Shown: positions 5,380-58,375 of the stretch, piece by piece
Layout of the letters: the number at the start of each line of letters is the position of its first letter
Position numbering within the stretch: position 1 is the stretch's first letter
Assembly (NCBI GenBank): GCA_963751215.1
Contig: CAVVTV010000024.1
Location: 1,052,178-1,116,177, forward strand
Length of the DNA: 64,000 bases
DNA from: an uncultured Thermoleophilia bacterium
Lineage (GTDB): Bacteria > Actinomycetota > Thermoleophilia > UBA2241
Direction of reading: 5' to 3'
The notes under the pieces: model-generated
What the model was told of the DNA's origin: nothing
The model's database searches: none
What the model saw: only the letters and a program-made list of their open reading frames with translations
Made by a program: the position numbers and the translations under genes

Positions 5380-6840
5380 TCAAGGGGCGGCCCAGAGGTG
5401 CTGTACGGCGTAGGCGCGCCAAGGACGCCAGCGCGCGGAGAGCTCTTCGGCGGCTTTCGCAGTGTGAGGCACCCCGAGAGCCTCGAGCCCACGCAAGACA
5501 CCGTGGTCGGTGGAGGGAAAGGCATCGGTATCGGCGAGGGCCCGCATCGCGATGTACTCTGCCGTCCAAGGCCCTATGCCGGGGATTGCCAGCAGGCGGT
5601 GGCGCGTCTCGTCACGGTCGGCGCCGCCGTCGAGCTCTATCTGTCGCTCGGTGAGAGCTCGTGACAAGGAGCAGATCGCAACCGCGCGCGCGGCCGGCAG
5701 ATGCAGGAGTGCCGGGTCGGCGTCGGCCAGCGCTTCGGCCGTAGGAAAGGTGAAGGCAAGTGAGCCGAGCGGCTGCATCAGCGGCCCACCGAGAGCGGCG
5801 GCCAGCCGCCCGGCGGCGGTTCGAGCCGCAGCGATCGAAACCTGCTGCCCGAGCACGGCGCGAATAGCGATCTCGGCGCCGTCGGCGGCGCCGGGCACGC
5901 GCTTGCCGGGGGCGCGCCGCACGAGCGGCGCGAGCAGTGGGTCGCGGCCGAGAGCCGCGTCTGTCGTCTGCGGGTCGGCGTCGAGGTCGAGGAGGGCACG
6001 GCAGCGACTCACAGCCGCGGCCAAGTCGCGCAGATCGGCGAGCTGGAGTGTGCCGGCGACATGATCGTTGCGCGGCGTGAGCTGCACGATAGCGTTGCCG
6101 TGTCGTAGGCGCAGCGAGCGCCTGAACGTGCCGCCTGAGACCTCCTCCACGCCTTGCACGACGCGCGCGCCGAAGAAGCCGAGCAGGCCATCGGCATCGA
6201 GAGGCAGACGGTGCGGCAACCGCAAGACGATCGCGCCAAGGGGGACGGCCTGGTGCCGGCCGGCGGCGCGCAGCCTTCGGCGCCGCCGCCGCAGCGCTGT
6301 CGGCGTGAGGGCGAACACGTCGCGCACGGTGTCGTTGAACTGCCGCAGGCTAGCGAACCCCGCGGCGAAGGCGACCTCGGCGAAGCGCAGGTCCGTGGTC
6401 TCTATGAGCAGGCGCGCGGTCTGGGCGCGCTGGGCGCGGGCCAGACCGAGCGGCCCTGCACCGAGCTCATCATGCAATAAGCGGCGTAGCTGCCGCGGGC
6501 TGTAGGCCAGCCGCCGGGCCAGCCCCTCGACGCCCTCGCGATCGACGACGCCGTCGGCGATGAGCCGCATGGCGCGCCCCGCAGTATCGGCGCGCAGGTT
6601 CCACTGCGGCGATCCCGGCGAGGCGTCTGGGCGGCAGCGCAGGCAGGCTCGGTAGCCGACCGCCTGCGCCGCCGCGGCCGTGGGGTAGAACGTCACGTTC
6701 TCGCGCTTAGGCAGCCTCGACGGGCAGCTTGGGCGGCAGTAGATGCCGGTCGATGAGACGGCGACGTAGAACCACCCGTCAAAGCGCTGGTCACGGCTTT
6801 GCATGGCACGGTAGCAGGTGTCAGCTGCGGGCAGCATCAT
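5380..6840 (-). CDS. adaA-alkA: bifunctional Ada-N (methylphosphotriester-DNA methyltransferase, AraC-type regulator) / DNA-3-methyladenine glycosylase II (AlkA) fusion
   Basis: ORF 5380..7059 trimmed to ATG ATG at 6838-6840 (MMLPAAD). N-terminal FDGWFYVAVSSTGIYCRPSCPSR and CLRC Zn-binding Ada domain, AraC HTH, C-terminal HhH glycosylase (LLAIPGIGPWTAEYIAMRAL). Confidence 0.85.
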   Translation of the reverse strand: MMLPAADTCYRAMQSRDQRFDGWFYVAVSSTGIYCRPSCPSRLPKRENVTFYPTAAAAQAVGYRACLRCRPDASPGSPQWNLRADTAGRAMRLIADGVVDREGVEGLARRLAYSPRQLRRLLHDELGAGPLGLARAQRAQTARLLIETTDLRFAEVAFAAGFASLRQFNDTVRDVFALTPTALRRRRRRLRAAGRHQAVPLGAIVLRLPHRLPLDADGLLGFFGARVVQGVEEVSGGTFRRSLRLRHGNAIVQLTPRNDHVAGTLQLADLRDLAAAVSRCRALLDLDADPQTTDAALGRDPLLAPLVRRAPGKRVPGAADGAEIAIRAVLGQQVSIAAARTAAGRLAAALGGPLMQPLGSLAFTFPTAEALADADPALLHLPAARAVAICSLSRALTERQIELDGGADRDETRHRLLAIPGIGPWTAEYIAMRALADTDAFPSTDHGVLRGLEALGVPHTAKAAEELSARWRPWRAYAVQHLWAAP

Positions 6841-7659: not shown

Positions 7660-10600
7660 TCAGGCAAGCCGCAGACACACAACCTGAAGGTCGTCCTTAA
7701 GGCTGCCCGCGAACTCGAGGGCGGCGGTCCGCACGCCGTCGGCAAACTCCTGAGCGGAGAGCCCTCTCAGCCGGCAGGCCAGGTTGGCGAGTCGCTTCTC
7801 GCCATACTGCCGACTACCGCGGCGGGCCTCGGTGACGCCGTCAGTGTAGAACAACAGGTAATCATCCAGGGAGAGCCAGAGATGCTCTTCGCGGTAGTTG
7901 CTCGGGAAGCTGCCGAGGGGAGGCCCGAACATGACCCCGAGCTGCCGGCAGGCGGAGGGAGTCACATGGACTGGAGCGGGATGGCCGGCGCTGGCGTAGA
8001 GCATGTGCCCGGTACGGGGATCGAGCACCACCATGAAGGCGGTGACGTGCGGTTCCTCGGAGTCGTAGCGCAACAAGACGTCACTAGTGTTGGCGAGGAC
8101 GAAGGCCGGAGAGGGGTTAACGGCGGCAAACGCGCGCACCGTGCTGCGCACCGTCTCGGTGTGCCCCGCTGCCTTGATGCCCTTGCCGGCCACGTCGCCG
8201 ATCAGCACCGCAATTCTACCGTCTGCCAGCTCGAAGACCTCGCTGAAGTCGCCGCCGATGAGCTCCGGCTCATAGGCCGTCTGCGAAACGATGCCAAGCT
8301 CGATGCCGGGCACGCCCGGCAGCGGGTGCTTGAAGCTCTCCTGCAGGGTCGTGGCGATGCGCTGCTGCTCTTCGTAGAGCCGGGCATTCTCGAGAGCCGA
8401 CGACATGGCACTGGCCAGCTGGCCGGCAAACTCGACGGTGCGCCGCTCGAACCTCGTAGCGGCTGCATGGCGGTTGAAGAAGACGACGCCCAGGACCTCT
8501 TCTCTGACGATCAGTGGTATGCAGAGAACGGAGCGCACGCCGAAGCGGGCTTGCACATCGGGGAAGCAGCGCGGGTCGGCCTCACAGTCGTCGATAGCGA
8601 TCGGGCGCCGCTCCGTGACCGCAGTGACGACGAACGGCACCTCGTCGGTGCTAACGCTCTCGTGGATGACCCCTGGCACCTCCGGATAGCCGTACTCGGC
8701 GACCCAGTCGTCGCCGTGCTTGAGCGCGACCATGACGCTGTCCGCCTCGACGACGGCGACAGCGCGCTCGACAACGGTCTGCATGATGGCCTTCGTATCC
8801 AGGGTCGAGTTGATCAAGCGGTTGATCTCGTTGAGGGCCGTGGCGAGGCGCGCCGCTTCAGTCTCGCGTGCGAGTAGACGCGCGTTCTCAAGGGCCAGAG
8901 AGACGGTGGCCCCGAGCTTGCGCGCGAAGTCGATCTCGGCGTCCTCGAAGTTGCGTGGCGTCTTGCCGTAGAGCAGCAGGCAGCCCATCGCCGAGCCCCT
9001 GGCTACCAGCGGCACCGCAAGCACGGACCGCACGGCATGGATGTGGACGAAACCGACGTCAAGTGACGGATCGGCGGCCATGTCGGCAATCGCAAAGGGT
9101 TCCAGGATTGCCGCGGCGCGCGTGGCGTTGGGCGCCTCCAGATCGCTCAGCCGCAGGCCGACATCGCCAGGCGAGAAGCCTGTCTGGTAGCTTACTACCC
9201 AGCAGGACTCCTCACGCATCTCGATCGCGCCGGTATCGACGGATAGAGCCCGCACGCCTTCCTCAAGGCCCCGCTGCATGATCACGTCGAGGTCGAGCTT
9301 GGAGTGCACCAAGTTGTCGATCGCGTTGAGCGCCTCGGCGAGGTCGGCGCGCAGTCTCAGCCCCTCCTCCGCCCGCAGGCGGGCTGTGACGTCGTTGAAG
9401 ATGGTCGCGAACTTGCCCGGCGAGGGAGTGTAGGCGACGACCTCATAATGCCGATCGAGAGCAATGGAGTAGTGATCGAAGGTCGCCTGGCGGCCAGTCT
9501 GCGCCACGTTGCCGCAGACCTCGATCCAGAGAGGCTCGCGGCTGGGAAGCACCTCACGAGCGGTGTGCCCGATGAGGTCATTGGCGCGCAGGCCGATGAG
9601 CTCCTCGAAAGCCCTGTTGACCTCGAGGAAACGATAGTCGACCGGGCGACCCTCCGAGTCGCTCACGATCTCGTGGACGGCGAAGCCGCTGGTCATCTCC
9701 GTGAAGAGTCTCTGATACGCGCCACGGCTGGCGGCCAAGCCCGCATTGGACGATTCGATCTCAAGCGCCTGCGCCTGCAACTCCTCGCCCTGAGAACGCA
9801 GCTCCTCGCCCTGCGTACGCAGCTCCTCGAGCGCTTGCTGATGCTCGAACTCGGCTTGCTTGCGCTCCGTGACGTCCGAGAACAAGACCGTGACTCCATC
9901 TGGGCTTGGGTAGTCTCGTTCCTCAACCCAGAGACCTAGCGGTTCGTAGTAGGCCTCGAAGGCGGCGGTCCGGCCCTCCTCCATCGCCTTCCGCTTGCTC
10001 AGCTCGAAGATGCTGCCCGCCATGTCTGGGAAGAGCGCCAGGAAGCTGCGACCGAGCAGCTCCTCCTTGGTGCGCTGGAAGTAGGCGGCCGCCCTGTCGT
10101 TCACGAACGTGAGACGCCAGCGGCGATCGAGCGTGAAGAAGGCGTCGCTGATCGTGCCCAGGATAGTGGCCAGACGCATGTGCGAATTGGCCAACTCCCG
10201 TTCAACGTACTTGCGCTCGTTGATCTGACGGTAGTAGGCGCTGACGCCTGCCGCGGTCGGGTAGATGCGCACCTCATACCAGTCTCTGTCGACGACCGAG
10301 CGATGTTCGAAGATGGAGGGCTGGCCGAGCTCCATGGCATCCCGGTAGTGAGCCGCGAGCGGGGTGTCGACCAGCTCCGGGAAGACCTCCCACGGCGTGC
10401 GGCCGAGCAGCTCTGCAAGCGACGTACCGGTCATCTTGAGGGCGGCGCTGTTGGCGTAGACGTAGCGGTACTGCCAGTCGAGTGCCAGGAAGGCCTCGTC
10501 GATCTCCTCGAGCAGGGCCCTCATCCTGATCTCGCGATGGGTGCTCTGCGGCGTGCCGGCAACCACGGCGAGACCGCTCTCAAGTGACCCCACGGGGCAC

Positions 10601-16061: not shown

Positions 16062-16239
16062 CGCCAAGCCGTGGCGGCGCCGACCGGCGGACCGCCGGGA
16101 GGCGGCCCGCCGTCCAGCGCTACGCCACGACTCTCACCCGCGCACCGGCAGTCGTGTTGCGCCTGGCTTGCGCTGGGCAGCGGTAACGGTAGTGTGCGGT
16201 GCGCCTGCGGCTCACCACACCTTAGCCCGCCTGCGGTGG

Positions 16240-17004
16240 CTAATCGTGAACGGGAAACTGCGAGACCGATACTTCCCTGGCGCCCGACGGCAGCGTGAAC
16301 CAGCACGTCGCTTGAGCAGCGGCCGGTAGCCAACCGTAGTCGATGGTCACCAGGCCGAGACCGTCGGGACGTTCCAGCATACGGATCGGCAGATACGTCT
16401 GAGGATCGACGTAGTAGCGCCGGTGCATACTGGGCTCCGAGTCAGCCAGCACCAGCACCTGCTGGCCGCGCAGGACGGTCTGGCCCACCCGGGTGATGTC
16501 GGCTGCCTGTAGCGGCGCCTGCAGCGCCGCCAGGGGCGCGGGCACGCCAGTGGCCGGAGCAGTGCTCGGCAGCGCCTGGCCGGGATGAGCGGCCTGCCAG
16601 GCTGCCTGCTTCTGCGCCAGGCCCTTGGCGAGAGCAGCGTGTGAGGTGGCGCCCAGCCGTTCGAGGAGGTCCCAGATGCAAGCCTCCTCCTCGGGAAGTT
16701 GCTCCCAGGCCGGGCTCCCCTCAACGGCCGAGGCTCGCACTGCCTCGCGCACCTCGCGTTGCCGCCGCCGCCGCTGACTGCGCCGCATATTGAGGTGAAC
16801 GTTGCGTGAGGCCGCGAGGAGCCAAGGGAGCGGCGCCTCGCCGGGAATGCCTTCGAGGCGGCGCCAGGCGACGAGGAAAGTCTCTGCGACGATGTCGTCA
16901 GCGAGCGCCGGCTCTCGCCGCCAGGCGAACGCACGCACGGCCCCGTAGTGGGCGTTGTAGAGCGCATTGAACCCGCTCTCTCGCCGCTTTCGATCGAGCG
17001 TCAT
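16240..17004 (-). CDS. ECF-type sigma-70 region-2 domain protein with a non-sigma C-terminal domain (no recognisable region 4)
   Basis: ATG 17004 with GGGGAGG RBS. FNALYNAHYGAVRAFAWRR...DDIVAETFLVAWRRL...PWLLAASRNVHLNMRRSQRRRR is a canonical ECF region 2. The remaining about 150 aa have no HTH or region-4 signature. Confidence 0.55.
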   Translation of the reverse strand: MTLDRKRRESGFNALYNAHYGAVRAFAWRREPALADDIVAETFLVAWRRLEGIPGEAPLPWLLAASRNVHLNMRRSQRRRRQREVREAVRASAVEGSPAWEQLPEEEACIWDLLERLGATSHAALAKGLAQKQAAWQAAHPGQALPSTAPATGVPAPLAALQAPLQAADITRVGQTVLRGQQVLVLADSEPSMHRRYYVDPQTYLPIRMLERPDGLGLVTIDYGWLPAAAQATCWFTLPSGAREVSVSQFPVHD

Positions 17005-39443: not shown

Positions 39444-39769
39444 TCAGCGCGCGAGCCGCCAACCCGGGGTCATGCCGTCAACGTCGAACGTGGCGTAGCG
39501 CCGGCCGTCTTGGCGGCTCAGCACGTAGCGCGACACGTTGAGCACGGGGATGCCTTCGGCAGTGGTTCCTGCGGGCGAGCCGTAGTGAGCGTGGCCGTGG
39601 ACGACCGCATCGGCTCGAGGGCGCGCTCGAGCCTAGCCACCTCGTCGAGGCCGACCTGCACGAAGCTCTTCAGGGCGGCTTCGCCGAAGGCGGCGAGGCG
39701 ATGGCGGAAACTCGCCGGCGATGGGCGTGCGCATGACGGCTCCTTCTCGTCGTGGCGAGCACGACATGG
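39444..39769 (-). pseudogene. metallophosphoesterase C-terminal fragment, internally frameshifted
   Basis: Two minus frames: ...FRHRLAAFGEAALKSFVQVGLDEVARLERALEP then shift to DAVVHGHAHYGSPAGTTAEGIPVLNVSRYVLSRQDGRRYATFDVDGMTPGWRLAR* (GHxH motif of calcineurin-like phosphoesterases). No start. Begins right after the stop of 39770..40135. Confidence 0.4.
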
Positions 39770-40135
39770 CTAGCCCTGCTGCTGTGTCCCCACGGCAGCG
39801 GGCACGCCGTTGCCTGGCTGTGAGCCGATGCAGACCTCGCAGCCACACGAGGCCTGGTGGCGCCAGCCGTCGCTGGGCACGACCGCCATGGCGACCATGA
39901 CGCGCTCGTCACGACGCGGCTGCCACCAGAAGTTGATGCCGTCGAAGCTGTAGGTGGGAAACTCAGCCGAGCTTCCGGGTCGCCACGCCCAGCGTTGCGT
40001 TCGTAGCACGTCGCGTAGAGTGAGCAAGGCGGAAGAGAGGTTCCTCGGTTCTGGGATCTTGCGGCCGACCGCCTCGTGCCGAACGTGCTTGGCCATGAGA
40101 CTGTCGGCGATCGTTTGCAGATCAAACTTGTTCAC
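39770..40135 (-). CDS. small hypothetical protein, DGINFW...SCxCxxC family member 1
   Basis: 121-aa track ORF (start possibly internal). C-terminal half YSFDGINFWWQPRRDERVMVAMAVVPSDGWRHQASCGCEVC aligns with 56358..56585 (YRYDGINFWRMHGEHSLLASAGDAPASGWWHRDSCNCPLC). Confidence 0.5.
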   Translation of the reverse strand: MNKFDLQTIADSLMAKHVRHEAVGRKIPEPRNLSSALLTLRDVLRTQRWAWRPGSSAEFPTYSFDGINFWWQPRRDERVMVAMAVVPSDGWRHQASCGCEVCIGSQPGNGVPAAVGTQQQG

Positions 40136-40261
40136 TGAAGAGACTCCCGCTACTAGTCGCGCTATTGGTGGGCAATAGGTACCCGCCGAGCCGGCAAGAT
40201 GAACGAGGGGCTTAGAGAGCCGACTGCGGCCGGGGCCGAGTGCTCGCGGCCCGATGACTCT

Positions 40262-40648
40262 TCAACCACTCTTGAGATCGAAGGGGTTGGCCCGCTTTTC
40301 GCGGAGGGTCGCGAGCTCTAGGGCGCCGTCTGCGCCGCCGCCGCGGAGGTGTGCCCTGACCTCTCTCAGCTCGCGCAGCGGCCCGCCGCCTTGCAGGCGG
40401 ACGTGCCGGAGGCTCGAGGCGGGGCGGCTGTGCAGCCGCCCGCTGAAACGCTGGCCTTCAGTGCCGGTCGCCGAGAAGCTGGTCGCAGCGATTACCCGCT
40501 CGAAGTCGGCGGGGCGCACGTCGAGTATGCTGATCACCCAGTCGAAGGTCTCCCTTGCGCCACTCTCGCTGATCAGCACGGCGTGCTTGCAGGTAACCGG
40601 CCGACCATCGAGCTTAAGGGCGCTCAGAAGGCGAGAGAGTTCGCACAT
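40262..40648 (-). CDS. hypothetical protein (weak call)
   Basis: Internal ATG (MCELSRLL) of ORF 40262..41089. GC3 not decisive versus the overlapping plus-strand ORF. Confidence 0.25.
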   Translation of the reverse strand: MCELSRLLSALKLDGRPVTCKHAVLISESGARETFDWVISILDVRPADFERVIAATSFSATGTEGQRFSGRLHSRPASSLRHVRLQGGGPLRELREVRAHLRGGGADGALELATLREKRANPFDLKSG

Positions 40649-40873
40649 CGCGACTCCAGCACATGCGTCCCGGTGTGAATCCTCGCCATGACGTCCTCCT
40701 CGATGGTGCACCCTGCTGAGGCATGGTTCCCAACGGGAAGGGGTGGCAATCGTGGTTCGCCGTAGACTTTTGCCGACTGATACCCTGCCGGCGAGCCAAG
40801 GAGGCGGCCGCTGGGTAGCTTGCCTCAACTCGTCGAGGAGGAGGCGGTCTTGGAGAAGACCAGGGTCCTGTTC

Positions 40874-41050
40874 ATGTGCGAGGTTCGCCTGCGGGTCTAT
40901 CATGAGGTTCGCGATGCCATTGAGGTGCGCCTCCACGGCTGGCTCGACGAACTTGCCGCACGGTGAAGGCGCCTGCCCGGCCTCGAGGCGATCCTCGCCG
41001 ACGCCGAGCGGCGCGGCGTGCCCCACGTCATCTGCCTCGGTGACCTCGTC
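40874..41050 (+). pseudogene. possible metallophosphoesterase N-terminal fragment with in-frame TGA
   Basis: Plus frame ...LDELAAR*RRLPGLEAILADAERRGVPHVICLGDLVGYRPE resembles motif II (GDLVGYGP) of YfcE-like phosphoesterases. Short; coordinates +/-3. Confidence 0.25.
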
Positions 41051-41104
41051 GGCTATCGGCCTGAAGCGCAAGGCGCCTCGCGCCGTCACCGGCGGGCAGC
41101 CGCT

Positions 41105-41648: not shown

Positions 41649-42035
41649 TTAGGCGGGCTGGCTGCCCGGCTCTAGAGTTCCCAGGTCTGACGCCGCCAGC
41701 GCCTCGGTGCGCTGCGCGTAGATGGCCAGGATGCGATCGAGGCCGGTGAGCTCGAAGAGGCGCTTGATCGCGGCGTTACTGCAGACGATGACAAGCGAGC
41801 CCTCGGCCGCGGCCAAGCGCTTGACGCCGCCGATCACGACGCCGAGCACCGTCGAGTCGATGAAGCTCACCTCGCTGAGGTCCACGATGACGCGGCGGGC
41901 ACCGTCGTTGATGCCACGCAGAAGAGCCTCCTTGAACTGCGGCGCGGTACAGAGATCGACCTCGCCTTGGAGCGCGACCACCGCGCAGCCCGCAGCTGGC
42001 ACAATGAGCTCCACGTGGAACGGTGGCGTAGTCAC
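41649..42035 (-). CDS. STAS-domain anti-sigma-factor antagonist (SpoIIAA/RsbV-like)
   Basis: ORF 41649..42188 trimmed to the GTG with GGAGAGGTGAGG RBS. ELIVPAAGCAVVALQGEVD...VIVDLSEVSFIDSTVLGVVIGGVKRLAAAEGSLVIVCSNAAIKRLFELTGL with conserved phosphorylatable Ser in DSTVLG. Confidence 0.7.
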   Translation of the reverse strand: MTTPPFHVELIVPAAGCAVVALQGEVDLCTAPQFKEALLRGINDGARRVIVDLSEVSFIDSTVLGVVIGGVKRLAAAEGSLVIVCSNAAIKRLFELTGLDRILAIYAQRTEALAASDLGTLEPGSQPA

Positions 42036-42242
42036 GGGCGGCCTCACCTCTCCGGGTGGCGCCGCCGGCACGCCGACACCCTGCTCCTGATGCGCTTGCG
42101 CCCGCCTTGCAGAGCCCGGCGACTCGGAAGATCTTGGGGCGGCGGCATGAACCCTAGCACAGCGCAGTGGTCGGCGATGTCTCCCCAACTGACGCCAACA
42201 TCTTTGACTCGGGCCGCCTGCCGGGTCGACACACGCTCACGG

Positions 42243-50951: not shown

Positions 50952-50974
50952 AAACGTCAGACCGACGCGGCTTC
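50944..50974 (+). promoter_or_regulatory. conserved motif copy 2: TATACT-aaA-AACGTCAGACCGACGCGGCTTC
   Basis: Overlaps the stop of 50445..50951. About 45 nt upstream of the GTG start of 51020..51529. Confidence 0.45.
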
Positions 50975-51019
50975 ACATGACGGCACGCTGGCTAGAAGGC
51001 CGAGGCGAGGAGCGTCCAC

Positions 51020-51529
51020 GTGAAGGTCCCTCTGCAGTGGGTCTGGGAGAACGACCCCGAAGGACTCCCCGATGATGACCATGCGCGCTGCATCGCCGCC
51101 CCCGGCGAGCGCTTCCTCGCCTGCGACGGGCAACTGTTCAAGCTGATGACGCGCCCCTGCACCTACCTCTCCGGGTCCCACGGCGGGCGCAGCACGACGA
51201 CCTTCGCGACGCTGCAGATGGAGTACCTCGGCCGCAACTGGGCACGTGGCCTTGCGCAGAAGTCCTGGGGCAGTGAGCCCTTCGTCGTCGGGCCGTTCGG
51301 CGGCGAGACCCAGCAGGCGGCCGGCCGCGCCCTGCTTGCCACGCTGAAGGGTGCGCTGACGGCAATGTCGTCAATGCGCCACAAGCCCACGTACCCAGCA
51401 CAGGCCGAGTGTGACGGCCCGGAGCAGCCCCTGCGACCGGCCGGTTGGCCCCCTTGCGGACACGCCGCCCGCGTGCGGCGCCCTGCGCTCCTACCCCTCA
51501 CGGTGGGCCGCGCTGGCGACCTGCGGTAG
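51020..51529 (+). CDS. hypothetical protein
   Basis: GTG start with GAGGAG RBS. No family match. Confidence 0.4.
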   Translation: MKVPLQWVWENDPEGLPDDDHARCIAAPGERFLACDGQLFKLMTRPCTYLSGSHGGRSTTTFATLQMEYLGRNWARGLAQKSWGSEPFVVGPFGGETQQAAGRALLATLKGALTAMSSMRHKPTYPAQAECDGPEQPLRPAGWPPCGHAARVRRPALLPLTVGRAGDLR

Positions 51530-51653
51530 CGGGTACTGAGTCAGCGACAACTCGTGGAACCCGGGGATCGCTAGTATGCTCCGCGAGCTCCCTGGCTAGT
51601 GTCCTGGAGAAGCGCGACTGGCGTTCGCGGCCGGCGGCGCGCGACTGACGAGC

Positions 51654-55171: not shown

Positions 55172-55568
55172 TGCCCACCCATCGGACGAGAATCTTGATC
55201 GGCTTACTGGAGGGGCCGCCTGCGACGGCCCCAGGAGTCTCTTTCCATGCGGCTCTCACCGCACTCTCCTCCCTTTTGAACAGATCTGCCGATTATGGTT
55301 ATTCCGGAGCCGAACACGCTGCTAACAGGGTCCGCAACGACCTGGTCGCCCCTCACTTGCCGCGTAGAACCTGACGCAGCTTGAGGCGCTCGCCAGTGTG
55401 CAGGATCGCCCGGCCGTAGATCGCGCCGGCTACCCGGGCCATCCTAGCTGACGCCTCCCGCGTGATCGGTAGCTCAGAGCGAAGACGGGCGGAGCGATCA
55501 GAGGCACACACTGTTTCTCGGAGAGCGTGTCCGGGTAGCCTGCCGCCAGGCTTTCGAGGAGGGGTGAG

Positions 55569-56036
55569 ATGCACGGTGACGCAAGGGTGATCGACGAGCT
55601 CAACGCCAGGCTGGCCGAGGAGCTTACCGCAGTTAATCAGTACATGGTGCACGCCGCGATGTGCGAGGACTGGCACTACGGCCGCCTGCGTGAGCCGATC
55701 AAGAAGCGCGCCGTCACGGAGATGAAGCACGCCGAGAGGCTGATCGAGCGCCTTCTCTTCCTCGACGCCCACCCGATCGTGAGCAAGCTCAACCAGATCC
55801 ACATCGGGGCGGCCGTGCCGGAGATGCACACCAACGACCTTGCCAGCGAAGTCGAGGCCGTCAAGGCCTACAACGAGAGCATCCGTGTGTGCGCTGAGCT
55901 GAAGGACGACGGCACTAAGGAAATGCTCGAGGCGATCCTCGCCGATGAGGAAGGCCACGTCGACTGGCTCGAGGCCCAGCTTGCCCAGATCGAGCAGGCC
56001 GGCCGCGAGAACTATCTGGCTGAACAGATCGGCTAG
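55569..56036 (+). CDS. bfr: bacterioferritin
   Basis: 155 aa. VIDELNARLAEELTAVNQYMVHAAMCEDWHY, EMKHAERLIERLLFLDA, EEGHVDWLEAQL are ferroxidase-centre and heme Met motifs. GGAGGGGTGAG RBS. Confidence 0.9.
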   Translation: MHGDARVIDELNARLAEELTAVNQYMVHAAMCEDWHYGRLREPIKKRAVTEMKHAERLIERLLFLDAHPIVSKLNQIHIGAAVPEMHTNDLASEVEAVKAYNESIRVCAELKDDGTKEMLEAILADEEGHVDWLEAQLAQIEQAGRENYLAEQIG

Positions 56037-56357
56037 GGGCCACCAGGCGGCTCTCGGGGCGCGGCCGTCAGGAGGGTGGGCTCGGCGCTTCCCTGGCGTC
56101 CCGGGCGGGTTGTTGGCCGGCACGCCGCTCAGCTCTCGCGATGGCGCGACCAGACGAGGCTGTCCGGGCCGGAGGCCCGGTCCATGCTCCCAACGCACAT
56201 TCATCTCAGCCATCTCGAATCAGCCGACTAGCGGAGGTAGGGGCCTGCTCCAGGACTCCATGTAAGGCACGGCCCGAGTCAACTGTTCGACCCCGGCAGG
56301 GGCGGGTAAGAGTCTTGTTTCAATGGGCCAGATAGGCGAAGGAGCCCGGTTTTGGAG

Positions 56358-56585
56358 ATGCGACACGGACCCTACTCACGCGAGCAGATCACGGCCGCAG
56401 GACGGCCTGCGACCTGCGAGCCCCTCAGCCCCGGCGAAGACCACTATCGCTACGACGGCATCAACTTCTGGCGCATGCACGGCGAGCACTCCCTCCTTGC
56501 GTCTGCCGGCGACGCCCCCGCCAGCGGCTGGTGGCACAGGGACAGCTGCAACTGCCCTCTGTGTCGCGGTGAAACGACGGAGTAA
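56358..56585 (+). CDS. small hypothetical protein, DGINFW...SCxCxxC family member 2
   Basis: ORF 56352..56585 (TTG) trimmed to ATG. 75 aa. See 39770..40135. Confidence 0.5.
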   Translation: MRHGPYSREQITAAGRPATCEPLSPGEDHYRYDGINFWRMHGEHSLLASAGDAPASGWWHRDSCNCPLCRGETTE

Positions 56586-56806
56586 TCGACTCCAGCGACA
56601 GTCCAGACGGCCATGCGGCCGTTTCACCCTCTCGGCCGACAAGCGCTGCGGTTCCTGCTAGCAGAACGACCCCCGATGTGCAATATTAGTGGGGACCCCC
56701 GGCACGCCGCCGTCTCGTCGAGATGCACCACGCCGCGGCGTCTGGCCGAAGTCAGGAAGCACCTTGCGGCACGCGACCGGCCAGTCCAGCACCACGAAGC
56801 CAGCAG

Positions 56807-58375
56807 ATGGCGGCTGAAGGTCGCCACTCCACCGGCGGCCCGGGGCAGACAGGTCTCGCGCCGCGGATCCTTTTGATCGAGGACAATCCCGGCGATGCGC
56901 GCCTCGTACGGGAGCTCCTCGCCGAGGCCAACCCGGGTTTCGAGTTGCACTGGGTGCAGCAGCTCGCGGCCGGCCTTGCGTACCTCGCCGAGGGCGATCA
57001 GATCGCCGCCGTGCTGCTCGACCTCTCACTACCCGATAGCCAGGGATTGGCGACCTTCGAACGCCTGCACGCCGCAGCCCTCGAGGTGCCCATCATCATG
57101 CTCACCGGCCTAGCCGACGAGGAACTCGCCCTGCAGGCCCTGCGCGGCGGTGCCGCTGACTACCTGACCAAGGACGACATCAGCGGGGCGCTGCTCGTGC
57201 GCGCGGTGCGCTACGCGGTCGAGCGCCGCCAGAGCAACGAGGTGCTGCGGCTCAGCGAGGAGAAGCTGCGTCTCGCTATGGAGGCGAGCGAGTCGGGCAT
57301 CCTCGACCTCGACGTCCCCACCCGCCAGATGACCTCGAGCGCCGACTGCCAGGCGATGCTCGGCCAGCCGTCGGTCGAGGTGAGCGGCCCACTCGAAGAG
57401 ATCTGGGCCGCCTACATCCACCCCGAGGACCGCGCGGCCAGCTTGCAGGCGCTCGAGGAGACGATCGCGGGACGCTCTCCCTACTTCGAGCGCGAGCACC
57501 GCCTGCGCACCACGCGTGGCGGTTGGGCCTGGGTGTACGACAAGGGCAAAGTGGTCGAGCGCAACGCCCAAGGCGCCGCGCTTCGCCTGCTCTCCACCTG
57601 CACGAACATCACGACGCGCAAGAAGGCAGAGGAAGATGCCGTCACCACGGCCACCCTGCTTGCCGAGCAGCGCCGCATCGCCACCACCCTGCAGGAGAGC
57701 TTCAAGCACCCGCTGCCGGACGTGGCCGGCATCGAGCTCGGCGTGGTCTCACAGACGGCCTACGAGCCCGAGCTCATCGGCGGCGACTTCAGCGAGGTCT
57801 TCGAGCTCCCCGACGGGCGGATCGTCGTCCTCATCGGCGACGTGGCCGGCAAGGGAATCAAAGCGGCGGGGCTCACCGAGACGGTGCGCAGCATGGTGCG
57901 CGCCTTCTCCGCCATCGATCCCTCACCGGCCTTCGTCCTTGCGAAGACCAATGAGGTCTTGTTGCGCTACGACCCCGAGGAGCCCCACGTCACGGCCTTC
58001 CTGGCCGTGCTCGACCCGCAGAGCGGACATCTGAGCTACGCGAGCGCCGGCCACCCCGCCCCACTGCACCTGAGTCCCTTCTCCTGTCGCCCGCTCGGCG
58101 TCGGCTTCGGCTCGCCGCTGCACAGCTTCCCGGGCCCATACCAGGAGGAGCACCTCAGGCTCTCGCTAGACGACTACCTGCTGCTCTACACTGACGGCGT
58201 CACCGAGGCACGCCGCGGCGAGGAGGAGTTCGGTGAGGAGCGGCTGATCGAAGTGGCCAGGCGGCTGCGTGGCGCTTCCGCCCAGGAGGTCGCCGAGGGC
58301 GTGCGCGCCGCGGCGCTCGAGTTCGCCGGCAGCCTGAGAGACGACCTGCAAGTTGTGTGCCTGAGGCTCGCCTAG
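56807..58375 (+). CDS. response-regulator receiver (REC) - PAS - PP2C (SpoIIE/RsbU-type) phosphatase
   Basis: ORF 56723..58375 trimmed to first ATG. RILLIEDNPGDARLV...DLSLPDSQG (REC, Asp pocket). PAS. PP2C about 80% identical to the C-terminus of 7660..11034, with the same terminal DDLQVVCLRLA. Confidence 0.8.
   Translation: MAAEGRHSTGGPGQTGLAPRILLIEDNPGDARLVRELLAEANPGFELHWVQQLAAGLAYLAEGDQIAAVLLDLSLPDSQGLATFERLHAAALEVPIIMLTGLADEELALQALRGGAADYLTKDDISGALLVRAVRYAVERRQSNEVLRLSEEKLRLAMEASESGILDLDVPTRQMTSSADCQAMLGQPSVEVSGPLEEIWAAYIHPEDRAASLQALEETIAGRSPYFEREHRLRTTRGGWAWVYDKGKVVERNAQGAALRLLSTCTNITTRKKAEEDAVTTATLLAEQRRIATTLQESFKHPLPDVAGIELGVVSQTAYEPELIGGDFSEVFELPDGRIVVLIGDVAGKGIKAAGLTETVRSMVRAFSAIDPSPAFVLAKTNEVLLRYDPEEPHVTAFLAVLDPQSGHLSYASAGHPAPLHLSPFSCRPLGVGFGSPLHSFPGPYQEEHLRLSLDDYLLLYTDGVTEARRGEEEFGEERLIEVARRLRGASAQEVAEGVRAAALEFAGSLRDDLQVVCLRLA

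Follow-up and report, generated by a model that had tools for sequence, protein, structure and literature searches.

The motif of ZAS (zinc-binding anti-sigma) domains, H-x3-C-x2-C, lies in an N-terminal helical domain, as in RsrA. Wbl (WhiB-like) proteins use four cysteines (C-Xn-C-X2-C-X5-C) to hold a [4Fe-4S] cluster within a helical fold, and the CDGSH/mitoNEET signature, C-x-C-x2-(S/T)-x3-P-x-C-D-G-(S/A/T)-H, supplies the three Cys and one His that ligate a [2Fe-2S] cluster. A His-Cys3 set in which a tight knuckle opens a helix looks, for its part, like a zinc knuckle of the mononuclear kind. As regards stress promoters, SigF of Mycobacterium smegmatis, which counts a Dps in its regulon, has the consensus GTTT-N(14-19)-GGGTA (PMC4694148). 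In Bacillus subtilis, the SigB promoter Pctc reads GTTTAA-N14-GGGTAT, and the promoters of the S. coelicolor SigB homologues are similar (PMC8346170). Here, we analyse a 64-kb stretch of DNA from an uncultured Thermoleophilia bacterium (contig CAVVTV010000024.1, positions 1,052,178 to 1,116,177 of the forward strand; the window in what follows), in which two small open reading frames (ORFs), A and B, are, judging from their sequences, two diverged paralogues of an undescribed domain of ~70 residues. We read them as small cytoplasmic Zn(His-Cys3) proteins that belong to a SigB/SigF-like stress regulon and act in pairs, and we give this reading about an even chance of being right.

ORF A (39770..40135, minus strand) opens with GTG and encodes 121 amino acids, and ORF B (56358..56585, plus strand) opens with ATG and encodes 75; the mechanical ORF list had begun B at the TTG at 56352, which made it 77 amino acids long. 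The family hidden Markov model (HMM) matches 39815..40039 in A (E=1.3e-24) and 56355..56579 in B (E=6e-27). That these two ORFs on opposite strands can be aligned was the core of the original prediction, and both its coordinates and its peptides were correct: BLASTP aligns residues 62-104 of A with residues 32-73 of B, with 16 of the 43 positions identical (37%; 58% positives; E=1e-10). When A and B were run by tblastn against the 64-kb window, each recovered the other copy alone (E ~1e-8), the remaining matches having E>0.4. The DNA likeness between the two is limited to a 23-nt stretch encoding DGINFW, and therefore A and B are old paralogues rather than the product of a recent duplication or a repeat. 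B is essentially the bare domain, while in A the conserved domain (residues ~37-105) comes after an N-terminal extension of low confidence (1-35) and before a variable, neutrally evolving tail (105-121).

Both ORFs have the codon-position pattern of genuine genes, with a G+C content at third positions of 0.80 (A) and 0.81 (B) against 0.51 (A) and 0.58 (B) at second positions, in a window of 67% G+C, and both were called as genes by independent pipelines. The nearest metagenomic relatives are 81% (A) and 75% (B) identical in amino acids. Compared with these relatives, the ratio of nonsynonymous to synonymous substitution rates (dN/dS), calculated from small samples, is 0.58 over the whole of B; for A, it is 0.17 in the conserved core and ~1 in the C-terminal tail. 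In summary, the domain is homologous between the two ORFs, its sequence is conserved and its core is under purifying selection.

A full HMMER profile search over 1.84 billion representative proteins returned 137 matches at E<=1e-3, 24 of which were at E<=1e-10. A dozen long multi-repeat matches (P0097, P0102, P0114 and others) were discarded as repeat or low-complexity false positives, after which the family comprises ~125 clusters at 50% identity, nearly all of 70-120 amino acids. The original prediction of a two-member family hence describes the window, which holds just two copies, but not the metagenomes, where these clusters are found and where the copies are typically multiple, in tandem or fused. 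Word-indexed protein searches gave three close relatives each for A and B, and a search using the family alignment gave 15 matches, every one annotated as 'hypothetical protein'. Every member examined derives from a metagenome assembly (ENA, JGI, Logan), where it is nameless or labelled 'hypothetical protein' and is without a RefSeq-type accession, and a scan of 185,579 species-representative genomes yielded a single match, in a Thermoleophilia (Actinomycetota) metagenome-assembled genome (MAG). The domain is confined almost wholly to uncultured soil bacteria.

An alignment of 115 members, which underlies all conservation counts given here and is numbered as in B, shows the consensus [YLF]-[TS]-R-x-Q-V-x2-A-E-R-x-A-W-A ... 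[YF]-x-[FY]-D-G-I-x-F-W ... P-x2-G-W-x-H-x3-C-x-C-x-L-C. P54, W58 and C64 are invariant, and D33 (113/115), G34 (111/115) and W38 (109/115) are nearly so; the exact string GW.H...C.C..C is present in 104 of the 115 members. B is atypical in that it is without the near-invariant Trp of the 'AER-x-AWA' segment, which reads AGRPATC in B. A falls in a subgroup (with P0002, P0003, P0007, P0008 and P0013) characterised by 'RWAWRP ... FWWQPR-x-ER' and by an N-terminal extension.

The impression that no named family is involved was borne out. Neither A nor B had a match at E<=10 in Pfam-A 2025, NCBIfam 20.0, PHROGs v4 or PADLOC 2.0, and the 115 relatives gave no consistent match to Pfam, NCBIfam, PHROGs or PADLOC (best scattered E 0.02-0.9). 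A profile search over all PDB sequences reached a best E of 0.96, and nothing specific was found when a described family was sought in the literature. The AlphaFold2 model of B, made from the family alignment, has a predicted local distance difference test (pLDDT) score of 89.9 and a predicted template modelling (pTM) score of 0.77, and its predicted topology is beta1-alpha1-beta2-beta3-beta4-beta5-beta6-alpha2 (strands 3-7, 18-20, 29-32, 37-41, 44-48 and 56-60; helices 8-14 and 67-70). In the model of A, this core recurs at pLDDT >90, between a helix of low confidence on its N-terminal side and a tail that is disordered. No significant match was found for the AlphaFold model among PDB and BFVD structures. 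The predicted fold is thus a confident one that is without a detectable relative in the libraries searched.

The most conserved feature of the domain is its C-terminal end. The original prediction had taken a Cys triad there as the sign of a metal-binding module; the conservation of the triad agrees with this (C64, C66 and C69 in 115, 114 and 113 of 115 members, respectively), but the ligand set is better described as one His plus three Cys, as H60 is kept in 113 of 115. The putative ligand codons in B are at 56535..56564 (plus strand; H60-x3-C64-x-C66-x2-C69, GWWHRDSCNCPLC), the last two Cys standing in a CPxC-type knuckle, and those in A are at 39830..39859 (minus strand; H93-x3-C97-x-C99-x2-C102, GWRHQASCGCEVC), in invariant or near-invariant columns. 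Exactly three Cys are present in 58 of the 115 cores. In the model of B, His60 closes strand beta6, Cys64 and Cys66 are placed in the next loop and Cys69 lies in helix 67-70, with the local sequence C-P-L-C-R-G. Given this residue conservation and the predicted secondary structure, the His-Cys3 clasp (G-W-x-H-x3-C-x-C-x2-C) most likely binds one Zn(II). The family core is near-neutral (median isoelectric point 6.3, net charge -1), which argues against nucleic-acid binding as its primary role.

The same conserved three Cys and one His could instead ligate a [2Fe-2S] or [4Fe-4S] cluster, possibly across a dimer, which would make the protein a sensor of redox state or nitric oxide like WhiB or mitoNEET. 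The family resembles Wbl in being small, multi-copy and found in actinobacterial-type high-GC genomes (the sole genome-level match is the Thermoleophilia MAG); moreover, tandem or fused pairs could share a cluster, and B adjoins a bacterioferritin gene with which it has a promoter motif in common. However, the H-x3 plus C-x-C-x2-C spacing fits neither the Wbl nor the CDGSH motif, no member matches the Whib or zf-CDGSH Pfam models, and a tight knuckle at a helix start is typical of a mononuclear Zn site. Fe-S assembly genes were seen in none of the contexts viewed. We consider an Fe-S protein unlikely and retain the Zn(His-Cys3) site as the preferred reading.

We then looked at the sequences upstream of the two genes. 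On the minus strand, the motif GTTCAT-N14-GGGTAC (40180..40204) ends 44 nt upstream of the GTG of A, with a GGGAG Shine-Dalgarno sequence in between, and on the plus strand, GTTCGA-N13-GGGTAA (56285..56308) ends 49 nt upstream of the ATG of B. A third motif, GTTTCT-N14-GGGTAG (55513..55537, plus strand), ends 31 nt upstream of the start of the bacterioferritin gene. Their common form, GTT[TC]-N15/16-GGGTA, agrees with the published SigF and SigB consensus sequences (PMC4694148, PMC8346170). Both motifs of the family genes are kept in full in relatives whose flanks otherwise diverge, that of A in the related contig L001 (GTTCAT-N14-GGGTAT) and that of B in L002 and L003 (GTTCGA-N14-GGGTAT). Homology to the nearest relatives spans ~70-100 nt upstream of each gene, with the motifs inside this segment, and then breaks, which implies that each gene travels with its own short regulatory region.

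The pattern GTT-N15-18-GGGTA has four sites on both strands of the 64 kb, where shuffled sequences lead one to expect 4.7. Three of the four sites are intergenic and precede the start codons of A, B and the bacterioferritin gene by 32-50 nt, when ~0.1 such placements would be expected by chance. Among independent family genes, a relaxed motif precedes 4 of 20, namely A, B and two A-type homologues (P0007 and P0008), the background being 2.7% (P=0.002). By the placement of the motif, A, B and the bacterioferritin gene each have a promoter-like site of the SigB/SigF type (group 3, controlled by partner switching), which suggests, at the level of sequence, that bacterioferritin is co-regulated with A and B in a small stress regulon. 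Scans for sigma-70 promoters and intrinsic terminators around A and B found nothing. If it holds, the motif offers a handle for predicting a SigB/SigF-like regulon in such MAGs.

B is flanked, as had been noted originally, by bacterioferritin (55569..56036) and by a gene for a REC-PAS-SpoIIE protein (PP2C phosphatase; 56723..58375, plus strand). The latter lies downstream of B after a gap of at least 138 nt, with its true start likely near 56808, and is probably a separate transcript from B. A STAS-domain protein of the anti-sigma-factor antagonist type is encoded on the strand of A, ~1.5 kb upstream of it (41649..42188, minus strand). A survey of the genomic context of homologues, which the original prediction had proposed, revealed no single neighbour that is kept across contexts, and a conserved operon was rejected on this ground; what recurs are genes of partner switching and sigma factors. 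P0104 is preceded by an RsbW-like HATPase_c_2 gene, a CheB/CheR-PAS-PP2C gene and CsbD, the homologue coming directly after CsbD. A pair of copies in L015 is preceded by three sigma-factor genes, the copy in L022 is flanked by two RsbW-like genes, and an operon in L026 includes an extracytoplasmic function (ECF) sigma factor and a STAS protein. HD-GYP or GGDEF genes are found near the copies in L001, L002 and L019. The window itself has two SpoIIE genes and one STAS gene among its 52 genes. The recurrence of STAS, RsbW-like, PP2C and sigma-factor neighbours is suggestive of a link to the family; we grade it no higher because the background density of such genes is high.

Several other features of these loci were observed. 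Between the window and L001, sequence identity is restricted to gene-sized islands (39719..40208 and 50958..51534 of the window against 7807..8306 and 13905..14483 of L001) with 81-85% nucleotide identity; the islands are non-collinear and their flanks unrelated, which indicates that close relatives have undergone heavy local rearrangement. L002 (3948..4008) and L003 (2406..2466) have, directly after the B homologue, a hairpin-forming segment of ~43-61 nt that is missing after B and has 85-91% identity to 16186..16246 of the window; it could be a dispersed repeat of small size or an element resembling a terminator. At two unrelated loci (L004 ~6210..6632 and L018 4543..4854, both on the plus strand, with the same gene in L019), another small ORF rich in Cys adjoins family copies. 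It shows the pattern ..GGR-x-C-x2-GC..S-x-YNPS..C..H .. C..C...FET.....YCS..CR... and weak matches to the YacG and zf-CGNR Pfam models (E ~1.5e-3), and it may be a recurrent partner.

The 'disrupted phosphoesterase' said to abut A was not confirmed, as 40136..41104 has neither a Pfam match nor BLAST likeness to the two Metallophos genes of the window. Within this region, the interval 40262..41104, between ORF A and an Lrp/AsnC gene, holds a mechanical ORF of 275 amino acids, and one pipeline calls a gene of 128 amino acids there; it has no family match and is unconserved in L001. The plus-strand string VPHVICLGDLVGY, near 41018-41060, looks phosphoesterase-like by eye and is possibly the source of that earlier reading; neither Pfam nor BLAST supports it. 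The HD-GYP fragments beside the A homologue in L001 have no counterpart in the window. The window also encodes two SpoIIE/PP2C, two GAF, two large TPR and two Metallophos proteins and an FtsH-type peptidase, and scans of the 64 kb with ARAGORN and with Rfam at its gathering thresholds turned up no tRNA, no rRNA and no Rfam family.

The contexts bear on another explanation, in which the family serves mobile elements or prophages as an accessory gene, be it a moron, an anti-defence factor or an exclusion factor, and has spread and multiplied in soil Actinomycetota, its stress and signalling neighbours being incidental. In L008 (3434..7408), a prophage-like region has a member between its phage portal gene and its gene for a terminase large-subunit nuclease, on the strand opposite to these, and L012 and L013 hold several copies among numerous small unannotated ORFs. 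The conservation of each gene with its ~70-100 nt upstream amid differing flanks, when the window is compared with related contigs, and the patchy, mostly metagenomic distribution would also suit a mobile gene. Nevertheless, searches of the IMG/VR viral contigs, of 50,697 deposited phages and of 72,556 plasmids yielded no relative, and there was no PHROG or PADLOC match. The majority of contexts consist of ordinary chromosomal genes, and neither copy in the window is adjoined by an integrase or a transposase. This origin appears quite improbable to us.

Family copies often occur together. Adjacent same-strand pairs are present in L011, in L014 (with a 3-bp gap) and in L015, which has a third copy 3 kb away; L012 has three copies within 4.3 kb, and L026 has the order copy-STAS-copy, in which the stop codon of the STAS gene overlaps the start of the second copy. 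Two-domain proteins also exist (P0011-type; L019 2993..3961, L021 71..1093 and L024 811..1656), and their second domain, although highly diverged, retains GWHH-x2-HC-x-C-x-FC. The long N-terminal parts of the fused ORFs in L019, L021 and L024 look over-called and of low complexity. The tandem pairs and fusions suggest that the domain functions in pairs. Together with the near-neutral charge, they lead us to infer a protein-binding module, probably a homo- or heterodimer, rather than a nucleic-acid binder.

Small genes in tandem multi-copy arrays, in whose products a cluster of Cys near the C-terminus precedes a variable tail, could also encode Cys-modified precursors of ribosomally synthesised and post-translationally modified peptides or secreted Cys-rich peptides. 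This is very unlikely, since the conservation extends across the whole domain and not a leader alone, the fold is predicted with confidence, no signal peptide-like N-terminus is visible by eye in the sequences, and no lanthipeptide, YcaO or radical-SAM enzyme and no exporter adjoins the copies in ~19 contexts. Finally, although high-GC DNA yields numerous long spurious ORFs in all frames, a chance likeness of non-coding ORFs is hardly credible and is refuted by the E value of A against B (1e-10), the >100 homologous clusters with invariant residues, the coding constraint seen in codon-position G+C and dN/dS, and the gene calls made independently by separate pipelines.

If the preferred reading of a paired Zn(His-Cys3) protein in a SigB/SigF-like regulon is correct, A and B would be stand-alone genes, each transcribed from its own SigB/SigF-type promoter, and would be made, together with bacterioferritin, under stress or in stationary phase. 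Each protein would then serve to bind other proteins, probably in homo- or heterodimeric form, and its Zn-thiolate site would be either structural or a thiol/metal switch that feeds into partner-switching signalling or operates downstream of it. The identity of the metal, dimerisation, dependence on a sigma factor and a role in signalling are the parts of this scheme that we infer. A number of observations weigh against it. The motif was recognised post hoc, after inspection of the sequence, and 16 of the 20 independent family genes are without it upstream, among them the A-type P0013 (L027); no sigB- or sigF-like gene was identified in the window. The link to neighbouring genes is statistically weak, as any position has a ~30% chance of such a gene within three genes and ~7 of 17-19 independent contexts have a partner-switching or sigma neighbour, and many contexts are unrelated (the prophage-like L008, the metabolic genes of L014 and L016, and the P0009 contigs). 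As for the protein itself, Pro at the 'CPxC' position is present in just 26 of the 115 members, and the dN/dS of B is just 0.58.

A more far-reaching version, which we regard as speculative and rather unlikely, is that, in soil Actinomycetota, partner-switching cascades use the new fold as an adaptor or as a sensing input, its Zn-thiolate responding to redox state or to metal. Here, paired copies would bind STAS, RsbW-like or PP2C proteins and so tune the SigB/SigF-like sigma factor that drives their own expression. Were this so, the family would add a hitherto unrecognised class of components to what an uncultured lineage uses in its general stress response.

What the present analysis adds to the original prediction is a multi-copy and partly fused family, partner-switching neighbours that are suggestive, and promoter-like motifs at A, B and bacterioferritin. 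If the preferred reading holds, an unannotated domain family is added both to the known small metalloproteins of bacteria and to the general stress regulon of soil Actinomycetota that are Thermoleophilia-like, little known and mostly uncultured, and the family would merit an entry in Pfam as a domain of unknown function (DUF). It is a compact experimental target, with 75 amino acids in B, four obvious ligand residues, natural pairs and fusions, and candidate partners encoded nearby. Soil metagenomes abound in small families that are unannotated, and we expect a moderate impact in the short term.

Compared with the described systems, the family shares features with several and belongs to none of the protein families considered. 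Membership in CDGSH/mitoNEET fails because the His comes first, the order and spacing of the ligands are otherwise different, and there is no zf-CDGSH match. Like Wbl proteins, the family is small, has multiple paralogues and Cys ligands (around a metal site that is putative here), occurs in high-GC Gram-positive-type genomes and has ties to sigma factors and stress; however, its ligand set and predicted fold differ, and with three conserved Cys and no Whib Pfam match, it is not WhiB-like.

The C(P)XCG zinc-finger micro-proteins, such as HVO_0758 of Haloferax volcanii (PMC10716476), are likewise stand-alone proteins of <100 amino acids in which a four-ligand site with a CPxC-type knuckle is the most conserved feature, and they too are multi-copy per genome and largely undescribed in function. 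In contrast to these, which have two C(P)XCG knuckles forming a Cys4 zinc ribbon, the family combines one C-x2-C with H-x3-C in a site that closes a larger, six-stranded beta domain, and no sequence or fold match links the two. A place among the Cys4 zinc-ribbon micro-proteins was hence rejected, on the single C-x2-C and on the low frequency of Pro at the knuckle.

With regard to regulation, the family genes have a promoter-like motif of the same type as the small proteins of SigB/SigF regulons (CsbD and Dps/ferritins; PMC4694148), with which the family has no sequence kinship; a place in such a regulon would be based on the motif. A further comparison is with ZAS/RsrA. ZAS membership fails on the H-x3-C-x-C-x2-C spacing, on the residue at C+3 (P, A or E), on the C-terminal position of the site in a beta-rich model and on the lack of an anti-sigma Pfam match. 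Still, both have a His+Cys3 set starting with H-x3-C and a tie to sigma-factor regulation and to oxidative or general stress, and either could plausibly operate as a redox switch of the Zn-thiolate kind. The family may work like a ZAS switch, though not as a member of the ZAS group.

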